NCBI RefSeq assembly: GCF_024521635.1
Contig: NW_026250418.1
Coordinates: 806,001-870,000, forward strand
Reading direction: 5' to 3'
Length of the DNA stretch: 64,000 nt
From: Tricharina praecox
Taxonomy: Eukaryota
Shown here: in pieces, positions 15,932-64,000 of the stretch
Layout of the letters: every line of letters begins with the position of its first letter
Numbering within the stretch: the first letter of the stretch is position 1
Notes under the pieces: model-generated
Databases searched by the model: none
Seen by the model: only the letters and a program-made list of their open reading frames with translations
What the model was told of the DNA's origin: nothing
Program-made: the position numbers and the translations under genes

Positions 15932-16044
15932 CTCGCGTCTGGCGTTTGGACTGTGGAGTCTGGAGTCGAGACTGTGGAGTCTGGACGAGCCATTTTCGTC
16001 TCGTCTCGTCTGTGTCGTGTGCGCGGACGGTTTCTTTCCCTTTT

Positions 16045-16370
16045 CTTTGCTTTCGTTTCTCTCGTTTCTTTCGTTTCTCTCGTTTCTTTCGTTTCTCTCG
16101 TTTCTTTCGTTTCTCTCGTTTCTTTCGTTTCTCTCGTTTCTTTCGTTTCTTCCATTGCTTTCGTTTCTTTCGTTGCTTTCGTTTCTTTCGTTGCTTTCGT
16201 TTCTTTCGTTGCTTTCGTTGCTTTCGTTTCTTTCGTTGCTTTCGTTGCTTTCGTTTCTTTCGTTGCTTTCGTTTCTTTCGTTTCTTTCGTTGCTTTCGTT
16301 GCTTTCGTTGCTTTCGTTTCTTTCGTTGCTTTCGTTTCTTTCGTTGCTTTCGTTGCTTTCGTTGCTTTTT
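16045..16370. repeat. Compound 9-mer array (TTTCGTTTC / TTTCGTTGC / TCTCGTTTC)
   Basis: About 35 interspersed variant 9-mers, which produce low-complexity ORFs in most frames. Confidence 0.95.
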
Positions 16371-17344
16371 TCGCCACACCTTGTTTCCACGCTGACGGGA
16401 GGCGGCGGCGGCGGCGGCGATAGGCTGTGGATGGTTGGCGAGGGCGAGATGTCCCAGGGCCAAATGCCTCAAGTTTCAACGACTCGTGAAATCCGTCGTG
16501 GCTATCCGGTCCAGTGGCGGCGGGCCGGCGAGAATTCCTATCTATCCAGCTATCTATCGCACGTATGTACGGTATGTACGATATGTTTGCATGCATGACC
16601 CGATTGAAGATGTTCTACATGGCGATGGTTCGATACCTACCCCTCAAAACGTACGGTATGTACGGGTTCTCCATGCTCCACTCTGCTCAAGAGCCCAGCT
16701 ATCTACCCCCGAAAGTACATAAGATACATACCACTACCGGTACCGGTATCACCAACTCCCGCGTGGCGCTGGCTGGGCTGCTGCACGAAAAATTTGTCTC
16801 CTGCAGCCACACCGTAAGCACCACTAGTGGCAGTGGCAGTGGCAGTGGCCGAGGCAGAGGCAGGCAGTGGCCACATGGCTGCAGGCTTTCCCTTCCTCCC
16901 TGCTCACCACTCTGCATACATACCACTGTGCATACCAACGGTAACCAACAACCTAACCAACCGCGTACTGACGCCCCCGACCACCGCAGTCAACACCGAG
17001 CTGGACTTCACCGTATCTCTGAAGATATCTACTCTCGAGTCTAGATACCAGTAGATATCGACCCAGAACCGGAATCAGAACCAGAGCCAGAACCAGCCAT
17101 TCGCCTCCGCAATTGTACTTGCCCCCTCCCTTGCCCCCTCCCCTTCCCTCCCTCCCTTGCCCCCTCTCTCCCCCCGCCCGACCCGCCCCGCCTCGCTCCA
17201 CGCCCCCGCTTCACCCCTCGCTTCACCCCCCGCGCCCCCCGCGTTTGCTGGTTTATCAAGGCTCGACCGATGTTTGCTTCGCTTCCTGGAGCCTGGAGGC
17301 TGGCCGCTGGCGGTGACCTGGTGCAGGGCTACAGGCCATCTATC

Positions 17345-22953: not shown

Positions 22954-23036
22954 TCTCTGTTAGTATAGTGGTTAGTATTTCCGCCTGTCAAAACGATAGT
23001 TCGCGGGAGACCAGGGTTCAATTCCCTGACAGAGAG
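22954..23036 (+). tRNA. tRNA-Asp-GTC: tRNA-Asp(GTC) with 11-nt intron (22991-23001)
   Basis: Acceptor stem TCTCTGT/ACAGAGA, D arm TAGTATAGTGGTTAGTA, anticodon GTC at 22987-22989 in stem TCCGC/GCGGG, T arm CAGGGTTCAATTCCCTG, oligo-T terminator at ~23043. Confidence 0.95.
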
Positions 23037-29985: not shown

Positions 29986-31722
29986 TCAGAAGTGGGGCCA
30001 ATAGTTGCTCCATGGAACAACGTCGAACGAGCCCTTCTCCAGGCTTCGAAGACTGATGAAGGATTCGCTTACCATGAAGCCCCTCGCAACAAGGACGAAG
30101 AGGAGAAGCGGAAAACAGAAACACAAGGACACCGTATTCACGACACAGTCACCACCGCCTAGCCACTTCATGCACTTGACCAAGCGCCCCGGTCCGGTCC
30201 TCGTATAGAAATAACGATCGAGCTTCTCGGCGCACAGATAAGCGCCTAAGCCCAGAGGTATACCCACCGCGACCGCAACCGAGGAGATCCTCCAGAGCAG
30301 CAGCTCGATCTGACTCGGCATGTGCGTATTCCACGCTGAGGCATGCGCCCCGCCATAAGCCACAGCAAATGCCACCAGAACCAACCACGAGCCTTGCTTG
30401 TCGTCGTCGAATCGCACGGAGCCCTCCCTCAGCACCATACGCGCCCGGACGCAGGCATTCTCCCGCGAAGAGGCATCGTGGAAGCCGATGTCCTCGGGCA
30501 TGAGGCTAAAAGCCCCCTTGGATCGAATGTCGTAATCCTGCCATCTATTCCTTGCTTTGGAGTCGCCACTGGCTGGCGGCCATAAACAGAACGAGTCGCG
30601 CCAGCCAAAAAAGTTGAAGATGTTGTAGCCCCCGGCAACCCGGATGCGGTGCATGCGTGCACGAACCCGGTTGGCTTCCAGCCGGTCAGGGTATTTCGTG
30701 TCGGCACGCGCCAATTCCGCGTCTTCGCTATGAGGGGAAACGTTGTCCTTTACTTCGGGGGCTACCAGCACATCCGCCACCGCATCTTCCGTGTGAGGGC
30801 CGGAAATCGGTATTTCGAAATCTGGTGCGCCGTAGTTGCGACTTCCATCGAACGAACGGTATATCCTCGCCGCCAGACTCGGTTCGAGGTGCAGTAAGAC
30901 GGGGTACCGGATATCCATCGGCTTGTGCCACCAGAAGGCGTATATCGCCACGGCACAGAGAACGTGCATGATGGTGTGGAGTTCAAGTAGAGTGAGGGGT
31001 AATCCACTCGTCAAGCGCCCAGCTCCCTCGACTACGAGCCACTGGCAGGTGTTAGTACTAGTTGACCTCTCTGCACCTCCTAGAAAGTAGTATGGATTCA
31101 ACCTTACCAGCGCCTGGATACAAACAACGACCTTGGCCAGACCATCGGCCTTGGATTTGTCCTCGATTAACCGTGGCTCAAGATCTTCGGTAACATTGAT
31201 TTCATCTTGTGCGTACAAGAGAGTAAAGCCCTGGGCCGTCAAAGTCACCGGGAGTCCGTAAACCTTCTCAGGCCCGGGATGTACGGCATATCCGCCCATG
31301 AGAACGAAGAACGCGGCCTTCATGTCAAAGCCTTCGATCCGCTCGTCCTGATTTTTAGTCCCCCTTAACTTCGCGAAATTCAGTCGGTGCGTCTGTATCT
31401 TCAGAATGACGTTCCGGATCGCGCGGGCTTCCATGAACTGATCGTAGGCACACCAGAGGACAAACTCCGGAGCGAGCATTCCCAGCAGCAGCCAGGCCAG
31501 CTTGAACAGGAGTAACCGCCCCGGAGTCGGTTGCGGGTTGATGTTTAGGTGTACTGCCGTCCACACGCAGAGACCGAGGGTAATGAGGCACGGAAGCAAG
31601 ATGCCCATGGTCCCCCGTCGCGTAGGTTCCGATCCCCACGATGGCTCTGTTTCGACGACTGGCAATGCCAAAGCCAGCCGGGCATGGATAGCCACAAGTA
31701 ATAGCGTGACGATGGCTCTCAT
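29986..31722 (-). CDS. Uncharacterised fungal multi-pass membrane protein, paralog 1; exons 31722-31108, 31041-29986
   Basis: Signal peptide MRAIVTLLLVAIHARLALA. Family motifs RGTMGILLPCLITLGLCVWTAVHLNI, AFFVLMGG, DKSKADGLAK, LTLLELHT, YGGAHASAWN, LLWRISS and ESFISLRSL. 66-bp in-frame intron 31042-31107 (GTAAGG..CTAAC..CAG). Confidence 0.85.
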   Translation of the reverse strand: MRAIVTLLLVAIHARLALALPVVETEPSWGSEPTRRGTMGILLPCLITLGLCVWTAVHLNINPQPTPGRLLLFKLAWLLLGMLAPEFVLWCAYDQFMEARAIRNVILKIQTHRLNFAKLRGTKNQDERIEGFDMKAAFFVLMGGYAVHPGPEKVYGLPVTLTAQGFTLLYAQDEINVTEDLEPRLIEDKSKADGLAKVVVCIQALVRLNPYYFLGGAERSTSTNTCQWLVVEGAGRLTSGLPLTLLELHTIMHVLCAVAIYAFWWHKPMDIRYPVLLHLEPSLAARIYRSFDGSRNYGAPDFEIPISGPHTEDAVADVLVAPEVKDNVSPHSEDAELARADTKYPDRLEANRVRARMHRIRVAGGYNIFNFFGWRDSFCLWPPASGDSKARNRWQDYDIRSKGAFSLMPEDIGFHDASSRENACVRARMVLREGSVRFDDDKQGSWLVLVAFAVAYGGAHASAWNTHMPSQIELLLWRISSVAVAVGIPLGLGAYLCAEKLDRYFYTRTGPGRLVKCMKWLGGGDCVVNTVSLCFCFPLLLFVLVARGFMVSESFISLRSLEKGSFDVVPWSNYWPHF

Positions 31723-34343: not shown

Positions 34344-35959
34344 TCACAAGTGCGGCCAGTAATTAGCCCAGGGCACAACATCGAAGGCGCCCACTGGGAG
34401 GCTGCGGAGACTAATGAAAGCCTCCACGACTACGAAGCACCTCGAGAAGATGATCAGGAGCGTCACCGCGAACGCGGCAATGGTCACCAAGGGTTTGAAA
34501 CAGACCGTGACCAGCTTGCGCGCAATCTTCCCCTCCACAGCTTCGATCCAAATCAGGCCCTGGCCTGTGAACGCGAACAGCAGCGGCCCGGCAACGAGAG
34601 CCACCGCGGAGATCCGCCACAGCAGCTGCTCGGTGGAAGTGGGCAAATGAGCGCTCCACGCCGTTGCGTGTGCGGCGCCGTATGACATCGCGAAAAATAC
34701 GAAGAAGCCCCAAAACCGTTGTTCCCGGTCCGCCTCGAGGCGCAGGCTGCCTTCGCGCTTCAACATTCGTGCCCGTGAGCACAGAGGTTGCAACGGGAGC
34801 TTTTCGGGAAGTCCAAGATCGCTGGGTTTTTCGGCGAAGGCCGAGTAGTGTGACCAGAAGCTGATGCTGTCTACTCCCGTTGGGGTTAACACGGCCTTCT
34901 GCACTGCTTCGCAGGATTCCGTGTCCGGTGCTACGGCTTCGGTGTGAAGGGTGTAGTCCTGTTTTTCGAGGTCGGGCGAGACGTTCGGCGTTGCACTGGC
35001 CGACTTTTCATCTTCCGTGCGAAGGGCTCCGTGCCGCGTTTCGAGGCCGGAAGCCGCATCGGGTGGAGCCGGAGCATCTTCCGAGGACTCTTTGGTGCTG
35101 CCGCTCGGCGCCCCGTCGAACGAAAAGTATATGTCTGCAGCCAGCTTCGCGTCGAGGTGCAGCACTACGGGATACCGGATATCCATCGGCTTGTGCCGCC
35201 AGTACGTGTAGGTGAGCAGGACGCAGAGCACGTGTACGACCGTGTTCAGCTCGAGTAGCGTGATAGGCAGTTCGCTCATCAAGCGCGCGAAGAATTGCAG
35301 GAGGAGCCACTGGATCTGTTAGCCGGACCGCTCGCGTTTCGAGAGGACCCGCGAGGCTGCCAGAGTATTTATGTACTTACGAGAGCCTGGACACAAACAA
35401 CGAATTTAGCTAGCCCGTAGCCACGCGACTTGTCCTCAATCAGCCGGCCATCTAGGTCTTCCTGCTTGACGTCCCCCTGCGCATATAACAGCGCAAATCC
35501 ATGCGGCGTCAACGTCACCGGGAGCCCCTGAAACTCGCCGGGCGTGGGATGGACAACATATCCGCCCATGAGAACGAAGAAGGCAGAGTGCATGCTGAAG
35601 TCTGGCTCTGCCACCCCCAGGTGGTCTTTCTGTATCTTCATGATAGCCTCCCGGATCGCACGTGCCTCAAAGTATTGATCGTGGGCACACCAGAGGACAG
35701 CCTCGGGCGCAACCATTCCCAGACATAGCCATCCCAGCTTGGACAGGAACAGCCGCATCCTTGTAGGCTGAGGGTTGATGTTCAGGTGGACAGCTGTCCA
35801 GACGCAGAGGCCGAAAGTGATGAGACAAGGCAGCAAGATGCCGAGAGTCCCTCGGTGTGCGGATTCCGGACGCCATCCTGGCTCCATCTCGACCACCGGT
35901 TGCTGGGCCAACATTCGCGGCGGAGAGTAAGTCACCAATAGCGTTGCGGTGGCGGTCAT
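34344..35959 (-). CDS. Uncharacterised fungal multi-pass membrane protein, paralog 2; exons 35959-35381, 35309-34344
   Basis: Same motifs as paralog 1 (RGTLGILLPCLITFGLCVWTAVHLNINPQPT, KPMDIRYPV, FDVVPWANYWPH). Intron 35310-35380 lies at the identical QAL|W position. Confidence 0.85.
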
Positions 35960-38619: not shown

Positions 38620-39170
38620 CAACAGCAGGTCAGCAAACCGGCGGAAGCAGTTCACCATATCGGCGGAAGCAGGTCAGTATATCGGTGAACGAAACGCGCA
38701 ACAGCAGGTCAGCATCACGGCGGAAGCAGGTTAACATCGACGGAAGCAGGTCGGCAATTCGGCGGACGACACGGGCAACAGCAGGTCAGCAATCGGTTCG
38801 ACAGCAGGTTAGTAATTCGGCGGAAGCAGCTTAACATATCGGCGAACGACACGGGCAACAGCAGGTCAGTAATCGGTTCGACAGCATGTCAGCATATCGG
38901 TGGAAGAAGGTTAACAACGGCGGAAACAGGTCAGCATCTCGGCAGAAGCAGGTTAACATCGGCGGAAGCAGTTCAGCATATCGGCGAACGACACGGGCAA
39001 CAGCAGGTCAGCAATCGGTTCGAAAGCAGGTCAGCATCTCGGCTGAAGCAGGTCAGCAATTCGGCGGAAGCAGGTTAACATCGGCGGAAACAGGTCAGTA
39101 TCTCGGCGGAAGCAGGTCGGCAATTGGGCGGACGACACGGGCAACAGCAGGTCAGCACTTCGGCGGAAGG
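38620..39170. repeat. Degenerate ~20-bp minisatellite (AGCAGGTCAGCATATCGGCGGA) with higher-order CGACACGGGCAAC inserts
   Basis: More than 20 AGCAGGT(C/T)A cores at 19-22-bp spacing. The CGACACGGGCAACAGCAGGTCAG block recurs four times. Confidence 0.9.
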
Positions 39171-56273: not shown

Positions 56274-58553
56274 TTATCCCATGCACCACAGTGGAGGAAC
56301 GCCATTGGGCACTCTTTCCACTTTCCCCACCGTAATCACACCCTGCTTTCCAATAAAGTTGTCAACATCGGGCTCAACGAATAAGCGCACCAATTTCAAA
56401 AACCGGCAGAACCGAGTCCCTCCGTCTTCCCTCAATATCGAGACCAGTGCATGCAACCCGACCTTGCGGTCCTGATTGAGAATCACCGCACCCCTCCCGA
56501 TTTCTAGTATCGATTTATCAAACGCCTCCAAGTCCTGTGAAAGCTCATTCCACTCCACTTGATTCTTTCCGGACTTTCGTTCCACCGGCCTCAATGACCA
56601 ATGTCGCTTTCCCGGCCCCTCGGTCAGCGAAAAGTGACGATGCGGCCATGTCGGAGGAGTTATAGAGCGGAACTCCAGGACGGGGAGGTCAAGGTAAACA
56701 CCGTTTTCGTCACGCAATACATCGGCGTTTTCGGCGGTTGCAATGCGGGCGCTCTGCTGAAGGAACGATTTTGGCGCTCAACGATACCCCGCGGTTTCGA
56801 GGCGAGGCGTCGTGCCGAATATCAGGTTCCGTGGGACACGGTCGACCAACGAATAGAAGACAGCCATGCGCTCGTCGGCACTCGCGATCGCGGTGATTTT
56901 AGAGACGTCGTATCCCAACACGGAGGTCAAGCATATGGCCTCGTCTTCTTGCCGACTGGTGCGACGGTATTGGAGCACGCGCGCAAGGTATGTGAGCTTA
57001 ACCGCGACATTGCCATGCAGAGGAAGCATGAGCAAAAGACTGTAGAGTGCGTTTTCCGAGTGCCAGAGACTCTTTGGGCTTCTTAAGAGGTCTTGAAAGT
57101 GGACTGGTCCGTCCGAAAATTGGATTTGCAGCTTGTCGCCGTGATTGCCATTCTTCGAGAGCACCGCTTCCTGGTACGTCCACAGCCGCCGGAACCACGC
57201 CGAGCTAAGGATACGCGTGCATTTCTCCATACGGCTTGCGAGCCGGGAGGTGGTCATCAGGCCTGTGTCGAGAACTAGGACGTGCTCTGATTCGTAGTAT
57301 GTTGTGGCGAGACGGGTGATGGCCACCTTGCGGACTTCTTTCAGACTGGGAGCAACCGGGATGCACAGCGTGTCAACCCAGATAGCGAGCTTGCAAGAAC
57401 TTTTCGGTCCGGAGACGGATGGGTTGAGTTCGCTAATCATTCCTTTAATCCTCGACAACTGGCAGTATGGAAGAGAATTGTTGTGGGCATTCCCCAAGCC
57501 CTGCGCCCAGGCATGCGAAAGCGCGACGTACGGACGGTCCGTGACGACTTCCAACTGGATATTTGGGTGATTATCGACTTCGTGTATGGCCACCAGCGGG
57601 ATCTGGCCTTTCCTTAGAATCGAAACGACCTGCTCGACGTCCACCGAGATATGCTCACAACCTTGACAATCCTCGGTATGTTTCGTTTCGTACGTATCCT
57701 CATCAACCTGGTTCGCGTAGCATTGGACCTTTGTGCAGCTGCTATGGTCTTGTGGGGCAGACGCCGTGCTGTTGAACGTGCGCATACGGCTGGCAATGTA
57801 CAGACTCGTCGTATCCAGCAAATCGTGCAGCATAGTAGTGGCGCTGATACACCATCCGCCTTGCAACATGCGTGCTTGTAGAGGATTCGTAGCCCGATTG
57901 AATCCAACTTTCCCGTCGTCTGCCAGTGCCGAGTCGTACAGCGGGACATGGATCGTTATCTTCGCCAGGTTGATGAGCGATTCGCCCAGCACCTGAATGC
58001 AAAGGATGGCGTCGAGCGGAAGAACGTCGGATATTCGCCACGACGTTGGCGACACCGTGTCCTCGTACCGCGAGATCATCCCAGAGACGAGCTTGAAAAG
58101 CTTTGCAAGGTCTTCGTGAGCCTTAACGCAGGACTTTATTGTTCTCTTGCCGGCATCGATGCATTGCCCGAAGTACTGCCTGGCCGGAAAGGTGGTTATG
58201 CACTGAACGGATCCTTCGGCGGGGCGCACAACGAATTCTTCCAAATCGATGGGGACTTCAAAGATTCGGAAAGCCTCGTGCAACATCCCGAAGAACAACC
58301 ATGCCTGCAAGAAAGCAACTTTCTCTGCGGCCGACGAAGATAGCGTCTTTCCATCTCCAGAGACGCGCACCGGCCCATCATCGGTCGTGTAGTCGATCCT
58401 CCAGCCGTGCCGTGAAGGGTAGTCGAAAAAGCCTTGCTTATCGTAGTCGTTGGGCTCGCAGAGACATGGGATCTTGGGCAAAGCGTCTCCCGGTCAGTGA
58501 ATGTCGGGAACGTGCCAGAGGGGGCCCAGGACATCGGGATCCTTTTGGGGCAT
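56274..58553 (-). pseudogene. HET-domain protein 2, paralog of protein 1, with in-frame TGA at 56778-56780 and 58494-58496
   Basis: FLQAWLFFGML, GGWC, YVALSHAWAQGLGN, IWVDTLCIP, WFRRLWTYQEA. GYR*APKSFL aligns with FRWAPRSLL of protein 1, and the frame continues to 56274. The 5' structure is uncertain (ATG 58553; possible upstream intron). Confidence 0.8.
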
Positions 58554-59518: not shown

Positions 59519-59907
59519 ATATAATAGCTGGACGTCACTGTGCGCTAAAAATATCTAAACTTCCACTTCGCTGGTTCCATTCCCCTTTCCACCGAGTTTT
59601 GGGCCCCAGTGTAGAGATGTGAGACTGGAACGGTTCCGGAACGTCGGAGTCTTCATAGATATCGAGTATAGAAAAGATGTCACAGCTCGCGGCAGAACGT
59701 TCGAGGAAGAGTGGGAACAGGGGCCGGAAGGCAGTGCGGGGGCAGTGCAAGGGGCTGCGCGGGCGGGAATGCAGGAATGAGAGGGAGGAATTGGGGCTGT
59801 GTGTTGGTAGCAGGGGTAGCGCGGCAGCGCAGGCTGTGAGCCGCTGCAGCGGGGTATCAGCGAGGGGGATTTCTCAGGGTCTGGCACATGCCCACGGTCA
59901 TTGTCAT

Positions 59908-60018
59908 TATAATAAAGTACACTGGGAAAGTACTATACCACTTGACCAAAAGGTATTTTGATGGCTGAAGACCATCATCCCAGTGGCCACTTAAGGCCAG
60001 GATTTCAGAACTGTGACA
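59908..60018 (-). mobile_element. Solo 111-bp LTR of the mini-element family
   Basis: 7 substitutions relative to the LTRs at 63434 and 63732. It abuts and truncates the integrase fragment. Confidence 0.9.
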
Positions 60019-60458
60019 ATGGCGTTGCTTGGTCAGTCGGTCAACAAAAACACAGATGGCGTCAAACCCCTTTGAGGCCGGTAGGCGAGTGACAAAGTCG
60101 ACTGAGATGTGTCGCCATGGCTTCTTAGGTACTGGGAGGGGGTGCAGGACACCATAGGGTGCGTGCCGGGTGGCCTTGGTTCGTCGGCAGGTGTGGCAGT
60201 TTCGGACAAACTGGTCAACGCCCTTTCGCATCTGTGGCCAGTAGTACCTCCGAGCAAGTGGTTCCAGGGTTTTCGTGCGCCCTGGGTGCCCCATGATCGG
60301 GTGTGCTGGTTGCTGCCAACCGGAGCTCTTCCGGTAGGTTGTCAGGTTTCAGGACTGCCTGCTGGTTGGCGAGCAGTCTTTCATCCCCTTCTTTAGGGAG
60401 GTCTCCTGACCTCCTGGTCAGTGCATCCGGTTTTCCTCCCGCTTTGCCTGGCCGGTAG
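60019..60458 (-). mobile_element. Ty3/gypsy pol fragment (RNase H end + integrase zinc-binding and start of core)
   Basis: [78 protein letters not shown]; internal deletion/frameshift. Confidence 0.92.
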
Positions 60459-61150
60459 TGTGACACCCCGATAGGTATCAGAGGTCACCACGGTCGCAAG
60501 AGATGTGATGAGATAGTTCGGGTGATTAGAATAGAGTTGCGAGCCGGAAGGATAGTTAGAAGCGATCAAGGACAAGATAGGAAGGAGGGAGCAAACGGAT
60601 TCCAGAGTCTAGACAGTGATCGGAGATGCGGCAGATCGGGATAACAGTCCAGAGGGCTTTGAGATCTCCGTTCATAGGGCCCCGCAGTAGAAACTCCGAT
60701 CCAGGGAAAAACTGTTATGACGAGAGAATCGAACATCGACCGACGGGGGCAGAGAACTTCGAGCGAAGAACTCTGCCGGCGCATGAGGGAGATAATTGCT
60801 CGGAAACTCCGATCTATCTTGGGCGCGTGGTGCTTACCACCTGCCTAGTCGAGAAGACTATCCAAAGAGAGCTGACGACGACTCGAGGCTAGGCCGCGGA
60901 ACTCCGATGCAAAGGAAGCAACGGAGCTACATTAGGCCGCACTCTAGAGGAATCACCTGCTCAGGATCGGAACGACTATAAGTCGAACCGAGCGGGCAAC
61001 CGAACCAAAAACCACAATCATCGCACCGAACAAACCATCGAAGAAACACCCTTAAGATTATTCCGTTGTGAATTATCGAAATCCCTGACTTTTATTCTAC
61101 ACTCGATATCACCATAGACTCCGACGACACAAACTCGTTCCAGTCTCACA
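60459..61150 (+). mobile_element. Probable 5' LTR (~690 bp) of a second Ty3/gypsy element
   Basis: Begins TGTGACA exactly where pol similarity ends and ends TCTCACA (TGTGA/TCACA inverted termini). TATAAG at ~60977. The gag ATG follows about 40 bp later. Confidence 0.6.
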
Positions 61151-61188: not shown

Positions 61189-63433
61189 ATGGCCTCCTCA
61201 AACCTCGACATGCTCCGCCTCGAACTTACTCAGACCCTGAGCAATGCGCTCGTTAGCATCCCGCAAGCATCCGAAACCGTCGAAGTACGAAACCCGGCAG
61301 CCTGGCTCAGGCTGATGAACTACCAATACCAAACGGCACAAAGAGACCTGCGCCAACTTTACCAAGCATGCGATCAGAAGTTCAACGAAGAGGACTCCCG
61401 AATGCAGGAGATCAGAAGGAACTACGAACAACTCTGCAATGGGGTCAAGTATGTGTGCAACCTCTACGCTCACAATGCCGAAATGAATACAGAATGACTT
61501 CGAACCGAGCTGTCAACGGTAGCGAACACGACACACGCCCTGAGCAGCGACGTATGGGCAGTCATTCGAGAACGTAACCAGAAAGACGAAAACAACCGCG
61601 AGCTGCAAAGCGCCGCAAACGCTCGGCTACAAGACGCAACCGTGTTCCTCGAAACAGCGCAAGTCGAACAACGCAGGGAGCAAGCGGTGTATAACCGCAA
61701 CGTGGAAATATGGGCAGGGAAACAGGAAGAGAAGGCGGAATACCTCTACAAAGAGCAACAGCGAATCAAGAAAAAAATCGCTCGAGCGGAGAAAAAATTG
61801 AAGGTTGTAGAGGTAAGGAGAGGGAAGGCGAAGGAAAAGGCCCAGAGTGGGTGAACACCACCCCAAGAGGAGGATCGAGCAGAAAGATCAGCAACAAGAG
61901 AAACTCCGGCAGGTGTAGGAATGTCCCCTCCTCCTCCACCCCCAAGACGTCCGGTGACTAACCTTGGAGGTGATCCCTCGGATGAGGAACCATCAGATGA
62001 TGACGATTCCATCCCCTTGCCGCGTCGTTCGCCGCCCCGTCACCGAAACGCTCTGCTACCAAGAGAAGACGACGAAGACGAAGAGAGTCGCTTCGCTCGG
62101 ATCATCGCTGCTGCCGTCTCCGCATCGAACCCGAGGGCCATCAAGCTTAAAATGACAGAGCCCGAGCCGTTCGATGGCAAGCAAAGGACAGCCTTCCGTC
62201 CATGGTGGGACTCAGTCGAAGAATATCTTGAGTTCCACCAAGAGACAAACGAGCAGCAGAAGATAGCGTGGGTGGGATCTTGACTGGAAGGAACAGCGGC
62301 AGAATGGCATCAGGCCCGTCGAAAAAGCCTAAGGCAGCTAGACTTGGAAGATACGTGGCAGGCGTACCAAGAGGCACTCAAGGAGGCGTACCGCGACACG
62401 CAGGAGGGAGCGAACGCATTAGGAATGATGTGGGCCCTTGAATACAAAGGAGACATCTAGGCTTACATGACCTCCTTCCGATCGCTCAACATGATCGCTC
62501 GCGCCACTGGCGAACCGCTACAAGACATAGTCAACCAGGCCATGACCACCGACATTGTCGGCATGTGCTTCAACCAGCACACCGAACCCTACGAAGATGA
62601 TGAGGACTTCCTGCAAATGATGCTCAGGGCTGGCAACCATGTGGAACGACGGGACGCGCTGAAAAAGGCAAGGGCAATGAGGAAAGGGGGATCGGGTAGC
62701 CAGGGTTCCGGCGGCGACCGGAAGGGACCTGGCAACGGCCGGCAGGGCCAAGGAAAGGGCAGAGACCCCGGGGGCCGCAAGGAAAGCGGGGAGTCCCCGG
62801 AGGGCCGAAAGGCCAAGGAAGCAACAGCAGTCAGGAAGGGAAGGACAAGGGAAGGGGACATCTACGCGGGAGCAAAGGAGGCTCAGGTAGGGGTTCCTCA
62901 GAAGGAGATCGATGCCCACAAAGCATCCAAATGCGACTGTTGGCGTTGCGGATGAGATGGCAACCGAACCTTCCAATGCTACGCCAGGAAAACAGTCGCG
63001 GGTACCGAACTCCCGGAGAGTCCAAAGGTGTCGTCCGTGACAAAGAGAAAACGGGACACCCAGGATGCCGAACCCACTCGACCGAGGTCCAAGCAACACA
63101 AGGCTGCGGCGGTTGTGGTGGAGGATGAAGCAATGACGGAGGCACCTCCATTCTGGGAGAGGAATGAGAGCAACCTGGAGGATTTTTGAGCGGCCCCAGC
63201 ACTCCGCAGACTGGACGGCCAGGTGTATATATTTGCGGAACGAAGAGACCACGGCCTCAGGATATCGACAGCGAATCCAGAGATAAGCGAAGACGAACGG
63301 ACCAACCTATTTCTACGAGTCCAACAGCGCCGAGTGCCTCAGGGTGCGAGCCCCAAAAACCAGTCAGTGGACCACGACCAATCATAGAAATGATGCTCCT
63401 CTGGTCTGAGCAGTAGCGACGACGGATCCGGGT
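61189..63433 (+). pseudogene. Ty3/gypsy gag (61189-63189, five in-frame stops) and start of pol in the -1 frame, cut by the mini-element
   Basis: PEPFDGK..W..VEEYL..KIAWVGS*LEGTAAEWH; zinc knuckle CWRCG*DGNRTFQC; stops at 61495, 61852, 62281, 62458 and 62953 all in one frame; ends G-GAT-TTT-TGA; -1 frame reads ...RPIIEMMLL..RRRIRV. Confidence 0.85.
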
Positions 63434-63842
63434 TGTAATAAAGTACACTGGGAAAGTACTATACCACTCGACCAAAAGGTATTTTGATGGCTGATGGCCA
63501 TCATCCCAGTAGCTACTTAAGGCCAGGATTTCTGAACTGTGACAGTATCCCCTCTTTAGGGGCTTACTCCAGGAAGCCTTCAAGTAGTTAACCCCCAATG
63601 AGTGATAATTCATGATAAGAGTCATGAACCGTCACTCACTGTAAGCCATGCAATTCCTGAACAACGCTGCAGCAGAGGAATGTAACTGCTCACAGTGGGA
63701 ATTGAACTCATGACCTTTGCAGCCATCAAACTGTAATAAAGTACACTGGGAAAGTACTATACCACTCGACCAAAAGGTATTTTGATGGCTGATGGCCATC
63801 ATCCCAGTAGCTACTTAAGGCCAGGATTTCTGAACTGTGACA
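63434..63842 (-). mobile_element. 409-bp non-coding LTR mini-retrotransposon (TRIM): LTRs 63732-63842 (5') and 63434-63544 (3'), 187-bp internal region
   Basis: Two identical 111-bp TG..CA repeats. PPT AAAGAGGGGATAC (63557-63545) adjoins the 3' LTR. TTTGATGGCTG lies 1 nt after the 5' LTR and is complementary to CAGCCATCAAA inside the LTR. No matching TSD. Confidence 0.9.
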
Positions 63843-63846
63843 GTAG

Positions 63847-64000
63847 TGTAACGGCACGGTCGGGCAAGGCTCCAGGTAGCGAAGTCGGGCTCGGAATCGG
63901 GTTCTAGGTTCGGCAGAGACAAGACAGGTTCAGAGGACAAGGTGAGGCAGGGCTCAGTGCGGACGGCAACTGAGAACAGAGGCAGGGACAAGGACTACGG
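63847..64000. mobile_element. Possible start of another LTR running off the window
   Basis: TGTAAC start 4 bp after the TRIM, and the sequence does not resume the interrupted pol frame. Cannot be confirmed within this window. Confidence 0.3.

Follow-up and report, generated by a model that had tools for sequence, protein, structure and literature searches.

Self-priming of reverse transcription has so far been described for full-length elements of the Tf1/sushi group. In this group the primer-binding site (PBS) has its complement in the element's own LTR and not in a tRNA, as in Tf1 and Tf2 from Schizosaccharomyces pombe, Tj1 from S. japonicus and the Tf1/sushi chromoviruses, and it is this property that the element reported here shares with them. 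According to the available text of PMC7175516, the first 11 bases of Tf1 RNA form a duplex with the PBS, and cleavage by RNase H falls between bases 11 and 12; Tj1 is described as like Tf1 in its priming (PMC4600332, available text). For plant elements, self-priming has been predicted where a complement of at least 10 bp lies 0–5 bp after the 5' LTR (PMC6317226, available text).

A second group for comparison are the TRIMs, defined in the available text of PMC10886601 as multi-copy elements below 1 kb with two short LTRs, a PBS and a polypurine tract (PPT) flanking a non-coding interior, and solo LTRs. Cassandra, Helenus and Ajax have been united there as TRIMp3 (Kojima 2024), that is, as TRIMs with Pol III promoters derived from small RNAs. 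In Cassandra, which contains 5S sequence, the start and stop of Pol III define an R of 18 bp; Ajax carries 5S sequence as well, and Helenus has a tRNA-like unit in its LTR. Helenus elements measure 311–1263 bp. In fungi the available text reports them only from Pucciniales and three Agaricomycetes, where they use tRNA primers (mostly of the anticodon-loop type) and apparently depend on Copia elements. The author of that text saw no complementarity between the tRNA-like part of the Helenus LTR and the PBS, and its discussion states that Pol III transcription of Helenus itself has not been validated (PMC10886601).

The window, by which we mean the whole 64-kb stretch of DNA analysed, contains a 409-bp element on the minus strand in which two identical 111-nt LTRs (TG..CA, TGTCAC...TTACA) flank a 187-nt non-coding interior (Table 1). 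This bears out the preliminary description of the locus, made from the sequence alone, as a miniature non-autonomous LTR retroelement with identical LTRs. The direct repeat itself is 114 nt long (63434-63547 and 63732-63845, 100% identity), of which 111 nt are LTR. The additional three nucleotides (TAC) lie outside it, as the solo copy at 60018-59908 differs at those positions; contigs from other loci in public sequencing runs diverge at 63544 and 63843, a second support for the same boundary. A purine tract precedes the 3' LTR, as had been noted. The longest ATG frame comprises 64 codons and runs through the LTR and out of the element into the flank, so that no meaningful ORF is present, in agreement with the earlier reading, and an ORF scan found no gag/pol coding capacity in the element, its 187-nt interior included. 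Runs of four or more T on the sense strand are limited to one T4 per LTR (63775-63772 and 63477-63474). As had been claimed, nothing longer occurs within the element, and the first T5 past it lies in the flank at 63359. By blastn, no other repeat in the window was found as a source of the interior, and in Rfam no family of tRNAs, 5S RNAs or ribozymes came within E 10 on 63380-63900. A reading of the element on the plus strand was rejected because the purine tract and the LTR-adjacent complement suit the minus strand only. Folding of the whole predicted RNA gave a z-score of -5.43, which marks it as unusually structured.

Table 1 Positions of the element's features and of related sequences in the window.
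Feature	Position	Strand	Basis or remark
5' LTR, 111 nt, TG..CA	63732..63842	-	100% identical to 3' LTR; solo-LTR alignment; contig breaks at 63731/63732 and 63843
3' LTR, 111 nt	63434..63544	-	direct repeat; contig breaks at 63433/63434 and 63544
Interior, 187 nt	63731-63545	-	between the LTRs
Putative U3, 51 nt	63792..63842	-	everything upstream of the self-primer
Putative self-primer (11 nt), with which R and the RNA are predicted to begin	63781..63791	-	perfect complement of 63730-63720
Two predicted U5 hairpins, self-primer to PBS	63733..63778	-	RNA fold
T4 run, the only T run of at least 4 in the LTR	63772..63775	-	T-run scan of the sense strand
A-box-like TGGTCGAGTGG in U5, 19 nt downstream of self-primer start	63762..63772	-	1 mismatch to TRGCNNAGTGG; exact to TRGYNNAGTGG
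Putative PBS, starting 1 nt past the 5' LTR	63720..63730	-	inverted pair with the LTR 11-mer
tRNA 3'-half-like stretch	63687..63716	-	AGGTC, T arm, 7 nt plus A; includes the B-box core
B-box-like AGTTCAATTCC in the interior	63698..63708	-	1 mismatch
Strong interior hairpin	63596..63641	-	weak miRNA-like Rfam matches reflecting the hairpin alone
Polypurine tract AAAGAGGGGA, 10 nt	63548..63557	-	3 nt ahead of the 3' LTR
Solo LTR of the same family	59908..60018	-	7 differences in 111 nt (94% identity); abuts truncated Ty3/gypsy integrase fragment
tRNA-Asp(GTC) gene with 11-nt intron	22954-23036	+	Rfam 51 bits; T5 terminator 9 nt downstream

The central feature of the element is an 11-nt stretch of the LTR that is perfectly complementary (11 of 11, 100%) to the first bases of the interior, exactly as the preliminary description had it. 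The two arms are 50 nt apart and the pairing extends at neither end. By hand estimate, a fixed 11-mer would meet its complement by chance among ~100 LTR positions with a probability of ~2e-5. Upon inspection, the PBS contains no TGG and bears no likeness to a tRNA 3' end; what it pairs with is the element's own LTR. When the stretch 63791-63715 was folded as RNA, an 11-bp duplex enclosed two hairpins at -26.4 kcal/mol with a z-score of -4.81, and none of 200 shuffles folded as well. The comparison with Tf1 is close, the duplex being exactly 11 bp in both (PMC7175516, available text), and hairpins between primer and PBS are predicted for the element and for the Tf1/sushi group alike. The complement of 11 of 11 bp, 1 bp after the LTR, also lies within the bounds given for self-priming in the available text of PMC6317226.

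Other copies allow a view of what is kept. Four public sequencing runs, all of them as contigs, were aligned to 63200-64000 with a likeness of at least 80%, and variants were listed where a difference reached 10% of depth. Among the variants so listed none falls in the self-primer or the PBS, and the letters of the self-primer are unchanged in the solo LTR. Because the anatomy agrees with the plant prediction, matches the 11 nt of Tf1 and folds stably, and because the primer is unchanged in the solo LTR, Tf1-type self-priming appears to be the best-supported mechanism, and the self-primer and PBS signature proposed earlier is thereby supported.

We consider it likely that the element is a non-autonomous, self-primed TRIM of a multi-copy family which follows a Tf1-like cycle with the enzymes of a partner acting in trans. 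In such a cycle the RNA would most likely begin at 63791, and its first 11 nt would fold back onto the PBS 1 nt past the 5' LTR. The RNase H of the partner element would cut after nucleotide 11, as in Tf1, and the freed 3' end of the 11-nt piece would prime minus-strand DNA, again as in Tf1, while the purine tract would prime the plus strand. A Ty3/gypsy partner of the Tf1/sushi type would presumably supply reverse transcriptase, RNase H and integrase. An autonomous partner sharing the LTR ends or PBS of the element was not found within the 64-kb window. This negative result speaks against the explanation, as do the lack of a target-site duplication at this copy, the two flanks that are not contiguous where their repeats occur elsewhere, and the 3 nt that separate the PPT from the LTR.

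How the RNA is made is a separate question, on which two further motifs bear. An A box in U5 and a B box in the interior had been proposed, and both are present with one mismatch each (Table 1), the A box at the proposed 19 nt from the start of the self-primer. The tRNA-Asp with which the B box had been compared is a real gene of the window, and default ARAGORN missed it because of its 11-nt intron. Its A box has the same T at position 4 that constitutes the mismatch in the element, and its B-box core GTTCAATTCC is letter-identical to that of the element, which is one of only two exact matches to this core in the window. As to the likeness to a tRNA 3' half that had been noted, AGGTC at the offset of the variable loop, a T loop, three of five T-stem pairs and then 7 nt plus A are found. 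The Rfam tRNA model reported nothing at E up to 10 on either 521 nt or 116 nt. The tRNA-like region has no counterpart of an acceptor 5' strand or of an anticodon arm. ARAGORN found nothing in the element at default or at a threshold of 86% or higher; at 85% it drew a G-U-rich cloverleaf at 63776-63688, one of 10 such matches in the window, of which by hand estimate ~0.02 would be expected in the stretch of the element.

With at most one mismatch per box and a spacing of 25–70 nt, motifs and tolerances that were chosen after the sequence had been seen, the window contains exactly two pairs of A and B boxes, namely the tRNA-Asp gene and the element. Shuffled windows held 0.17 pairs on average (10 of 60 had any), and shuffles of LTR plus interior yielded a pair in 3 of 20,000 cases. 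Taken singly, each box occurs at chance frequency: 30 A boxes were counted against 25.3 expected (15 of 100 shuffles had as many) and 9 B boxes against 8.8 (57 of 100 shuffles). The form TRGYNNAGTGG has five matches against 1.66 expected in the window, three of the five being LTR copies. In other copies, as judged from the solo LTR and the variants listed, the three variable A-box sites fall on R, Y and N positions and the consensus is kept, a placement with a probability of 4/165 if sites were random (hand estimate). The single B-box variant listed, 63698 C to T in 4 contigs, would restore the T-stem pair 52:62.

A tRNA-type promoter places the Pol III start about 19 nt upstream of its A box. 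Going by the letters of the DNA, the element may tentatively be read, in addition to its self-priming and not in place of it, as transcribed by Pol III. Its type-2 promoter would derive from a tRNA and would be split, the two boxes lying on either side of the LTR boundary, the A box in U5 and the B box in the interior just beyond the PBS. A Pol III promoter would then form solely at the junction of 5' LTR and interior, and with initiation ~19 nt upstream of the A box the RNA would start exactly with the self-primer. The T4 run, a possible weak Pol III stop 16 nt into R, could keep R short (~17–20 nt), much as in Cassandra. Several observations argue for the split promoter. The pair is rare, both mismatches occupy positions that vary in real tRNAs, the B-box core is that of tRNA-Asp, and the A box, whose variable sites keep the consensus in other copies, sits where the start would fall on the self-primer. 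The LTR copies among the TRGYNNAGTGG matches, the restored T-stem pair and the low-threshold cloverleaf point the same way, as do the lack of any T5 run in the element and a U3 of just 51 nt. Precedents exist in Cassandra, Helenus and Ajax, with an R of 18 bp in Cassandra (PMC10886601, available text). On the other side, the single boxes are no more frequent than chance, the motifs were defined post hoc, and both the Rfam model and ARAGORN at 86% or higher are silent on a stretch with neither an acceptor 5' strand nor an anticodon arm. In addition, the A box lies within U5 hairpins that self-priming may itself constrain, the letters of the B box pair with a downstream complement in a long hairpin predicted in the fold of the whole RNA, and the T4 run also follows the proposed start by 16 nt in the 5' LTR. 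Promoter function of the two boxes is thus plausible but unproven. That the self-primed TRIM would be a Pol III gene, with the PBS and the LTR end standing in place of the anticodon arm or intron of a tRNA and splitting the promoter, appears doubtful. Otherwise the RNA of the element would presumably be made by Pol II from the short U3.

Alternatively, the tRNA-like letters may be what remains, without function, of a tRNA gene or of a fragment of a tRNA-derived SINE that was captured, with Pol II transcribing from U3 or from flanking promoters, a reading we regard as somewhat unlikely. The pair statistics, which argue against pure chance, are compatible with it, and so are the T stem degraded to three of five pairs and the failure of Rfam and of ARAGORN at 86% or higher to recognize a cloverleaf. 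A TTAAGTAG stretch lies ~24–31 nt upstream of 63791, and most TRIMs are taken to be transcribed by Pol II (PMC10886601, available text). In a relic, however, one would not expect both boxes to be kept exact while the rest decays, nor an A box 19 nt from the start of the self-primer, and no donor tRNA was identified. We think it unlikely that the likeness to A and B boxes is pure coincidence in an ordinary self-priming TRIM. The chance-level counts of the single boxes, the absence of a tRNA model match and a post hoc search for motifs amid a scan of very many windows would all suit coincidence. Against it stand the 3 of 20,000 local shuffles, the 0.17 pairs expected per window and the additional tRNA-like letters, that is, AGGTC at the offset of the variable loop and the 7 nt plus A after the T arm.

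Irrespective of its promoter, the element is a member of a multi-copy TRIM family and not a one-off deletion, because the public runs show colinear copies as well as LTRs in other flanks. In X10, a large soil metagenome, five contigs (records 4-8) are colinear over LTR and interior with 14–51 differences over 191–351 nt and at most 3 gaps (85–93% identity), and the depth of the LTR bins is ~8–10 times that of the interior bins. In run X11, contigs with the LTR are flanked on either side by unrelated sequence, as in record 9 (568 nt, LTR at 224-335) and record 13 (1187 nt, LTR at 371-483). A further X11 contig of 327 nt spans 63441-63767 with a single difference. X16, a metatranscriptome library, gave a 243-nt contig with 3 differences, which attests presence in an RNA library and not transcription. 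Uncovered bins in X2 and X16 are without meaning, and the small shares in X14-X20 carry no inference on habitat. Five of the seven differences between the solo LTR and the element lie in the putative U3. In two runs a variant contig runs from the LTR end, with 3 letters added, into mid-interior sequence (63634 joined to 63434). Judged by this joint, it would be a variant copy with ~93 nt deleted and without the PBS and the tRNA-like stretch.

Since diverged colinear copies keep the short interior, the interior has been propagated as such. It is therefore very improbable that the element is a full-length element that lost its interior in a single event, or a direct repeat formed by chance, without independent propagation. 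For this reading one might cite the lack of a target-site duplication at this copy and of an autonomous partner, but against it stand copies 7–15% diverged that share the same short interior (X10 records 4-8) and solo LTRs in the window and in other flanks. The preliminary description had named a one-off deletion as the finding that would overturn it, and the colinear copies speak to the contrary.

A 30-nt LTR pattern had 0 matches in JGI metagenomes. A 22-nt LTR stretch had 0 matches in prokaryote genome contigs and 0 in viral contigs, as expected for such collections. A gapped pattern of self-primer and PBS hit 12 loci in the JGI metagenomes, all of which were rejected as unrelated hairpins (blastn and by eye).

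This particular copy does not appear to be a fresh insertion. No target-site duplication of 4–5 bp (5 bp for fungal LTR elements) was found at the element, whose flanks read ..ACTAC and ACCCG.., nor was one found at the solo LTR at 60018-59908. Where public-run contigs contain further copies of the flanking repeats, the sequence that follows the left flank is not that of the right flank. The missing duplications at element and solo LTR are probably due to rearrangement at these copies. As the flanks are not contiguous elsewhere and no duplication is present, this copy would sit at a rearranged junction, and its identical LTRs therefore do not date the insertion. The earlier suggestion of recent activity is accordingly not supported in the sense of a fresh insertion. 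The right flank (63848-64000) is itself a repeat with tandem-like joints that skip ~63–68 nt; its summed depth reaches ~141,000 in X11, with many differing upstream continuations.

A comparison with described families places the element between groups. With TRIMs and SMARTs it shares a length below 1 kb, short TG..CA LTRs, a PBS and PPT, a non-coding interior, multiple copies and solo LTRs. In contrast to described TRIMs, which use PBSs of the tRNA type, its PBS is of the self type, and this copy is without a target-site duplication. Compared with the Tf1/sushi group it has no gag/pol and measures 409 bp instead of ~5 kb, with LTRs of 111 nt. Pol of the Tf1/sushi chromovirus type (RT-RH-IN, chromodomain) is absent, and the element would be only a dependant of that group, to which pol phylogeny does not apply.

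The closest parallel among TRIMp3 is Helenus. Both have A and B boxes of the tRNA type in the orientation of the transcript, neither shows a functional tRNA fold or long T runs, and the 409 bp fall within the length range of Helenus. Nevertheless, the definition of Helenus does not cover the element, since the B box is placed beyond the LTR and the PBS pairs with the element itself. The whole tRNA-like unit is located inside the Helenus LTR, whereas here the A box is in the LTR and the B box in the interior past the PBS, and Helenus is tRNA-primed and paired with Copia, whereas this element is apparently self-primed. The hosts differ too, as the element seems to reside in a filamentous ascomycete, judged by a HET-domain gene in the window. 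The 5S-derived sequence of Cassandra and Ajax is not matched here, nor is the hammerhead ribozyme found in the LTRs of retrozymes (no 5S and no ribozyme family in Rfam at E up to 10). If the element is indeed transcribed by Pol III, the logic of the A/B promoter and a decayed tRNA body would be common to it and tRNA-derived SINEs, but SINEs are without LTRs, PBS and PPT and are mobilized by non-LTR elements.

The combination of these properties had been put forward as undescribed. That claim needs qualifying because Helenus and TRIMp3, and with them TRIMs with tRNA-derived Pol III promoters, have been described since 2024 (PMC10886601, available text). In the main texts of the literature searched, we found no description of a self-primed TRIM, and none of a split A/B arrangement in a TRIM. 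In the available text of a paper on bivalve TRIMs, self-priming is only raised as possible where an element has no tRNA PBS. The novelty would consist in the split promoter, the self-priming and the apparent ascomycete host.

A miniature dependant that keeps just the priming structure shows which features of the RNA are needed by the reverse transcriptase and RNase H of the partner, and the element offers a natural substrate of 300 nt on which these features can be tested. Should the A and B boxes work, the TRIMp3 class would gain a lineage that self-primes and depends on Gypsy elements, with an ascomycete as its probable host, and the split would be a neat route to a promoter at the 5' end only of an LTR element. 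SINE-type transcription and Tf1-type priming would then be joined in one 409-bp element, in a fungal group from which TRIMp3 are unreported. Working boxes would also mean that such elements scatter Pol III/TFIIIC sites across fungal genomes and give rise to false positives that resemble tRNAs.

The element lies among remnants of retroelements clustered at the window's end. A HET-domain ORF at 56781-58493(-) in this neighbourhood suggests a filamentous fungus. The solo LTR is abutted by a truncated Ty3/gypsy integrase fragment (Integrase_H2C2, 59860-60348(-), E 9.4e-17). It is part of a frameshifted Ty3/gypsy pol fragment at 59860-60484(-) that comprises the RNase H end and, of the integrase, the zinc finger and the beginning of the core; this fragment ends exactly at the solo LTR and the integrase is not resumed beyond it. 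The segments 59618-59682 and 61086-61150 form a 65-nt inverted repeat with 75% complementarity. Similar peptides are encoded by its two arms, on opposite strands, and it probably marks two copies of another repeat family around the integrase fragment. Gag-like frames at 61855-62955(+) are acidic and proline-rich and terminate in a zinc-knuckle-like end (CX2CX..C), with no Pfam match. They probably represent the gag of a decayed LTR element in whose continuation the mini-element is embedded.

Elsewhere in the window, a long array with a 9-nt period and at least 35 register shifts of a 162-nt unit occupies 15970-16400 within overlapping long ORFs and is probably a coding region for tripeptide repeats. 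The stretches 30845-31662 and 35113-35899, ~4.25 kb apart and inside long minus-strand ORFs, are 72–74% identical and probably belong to tandem paralogous genes. Finally, a degenerate repeat cluster at 38639-39170 consists of units of ~20–22 nt and ~140 nt that resemble GGCGGAAGCAGGTCAGCA.
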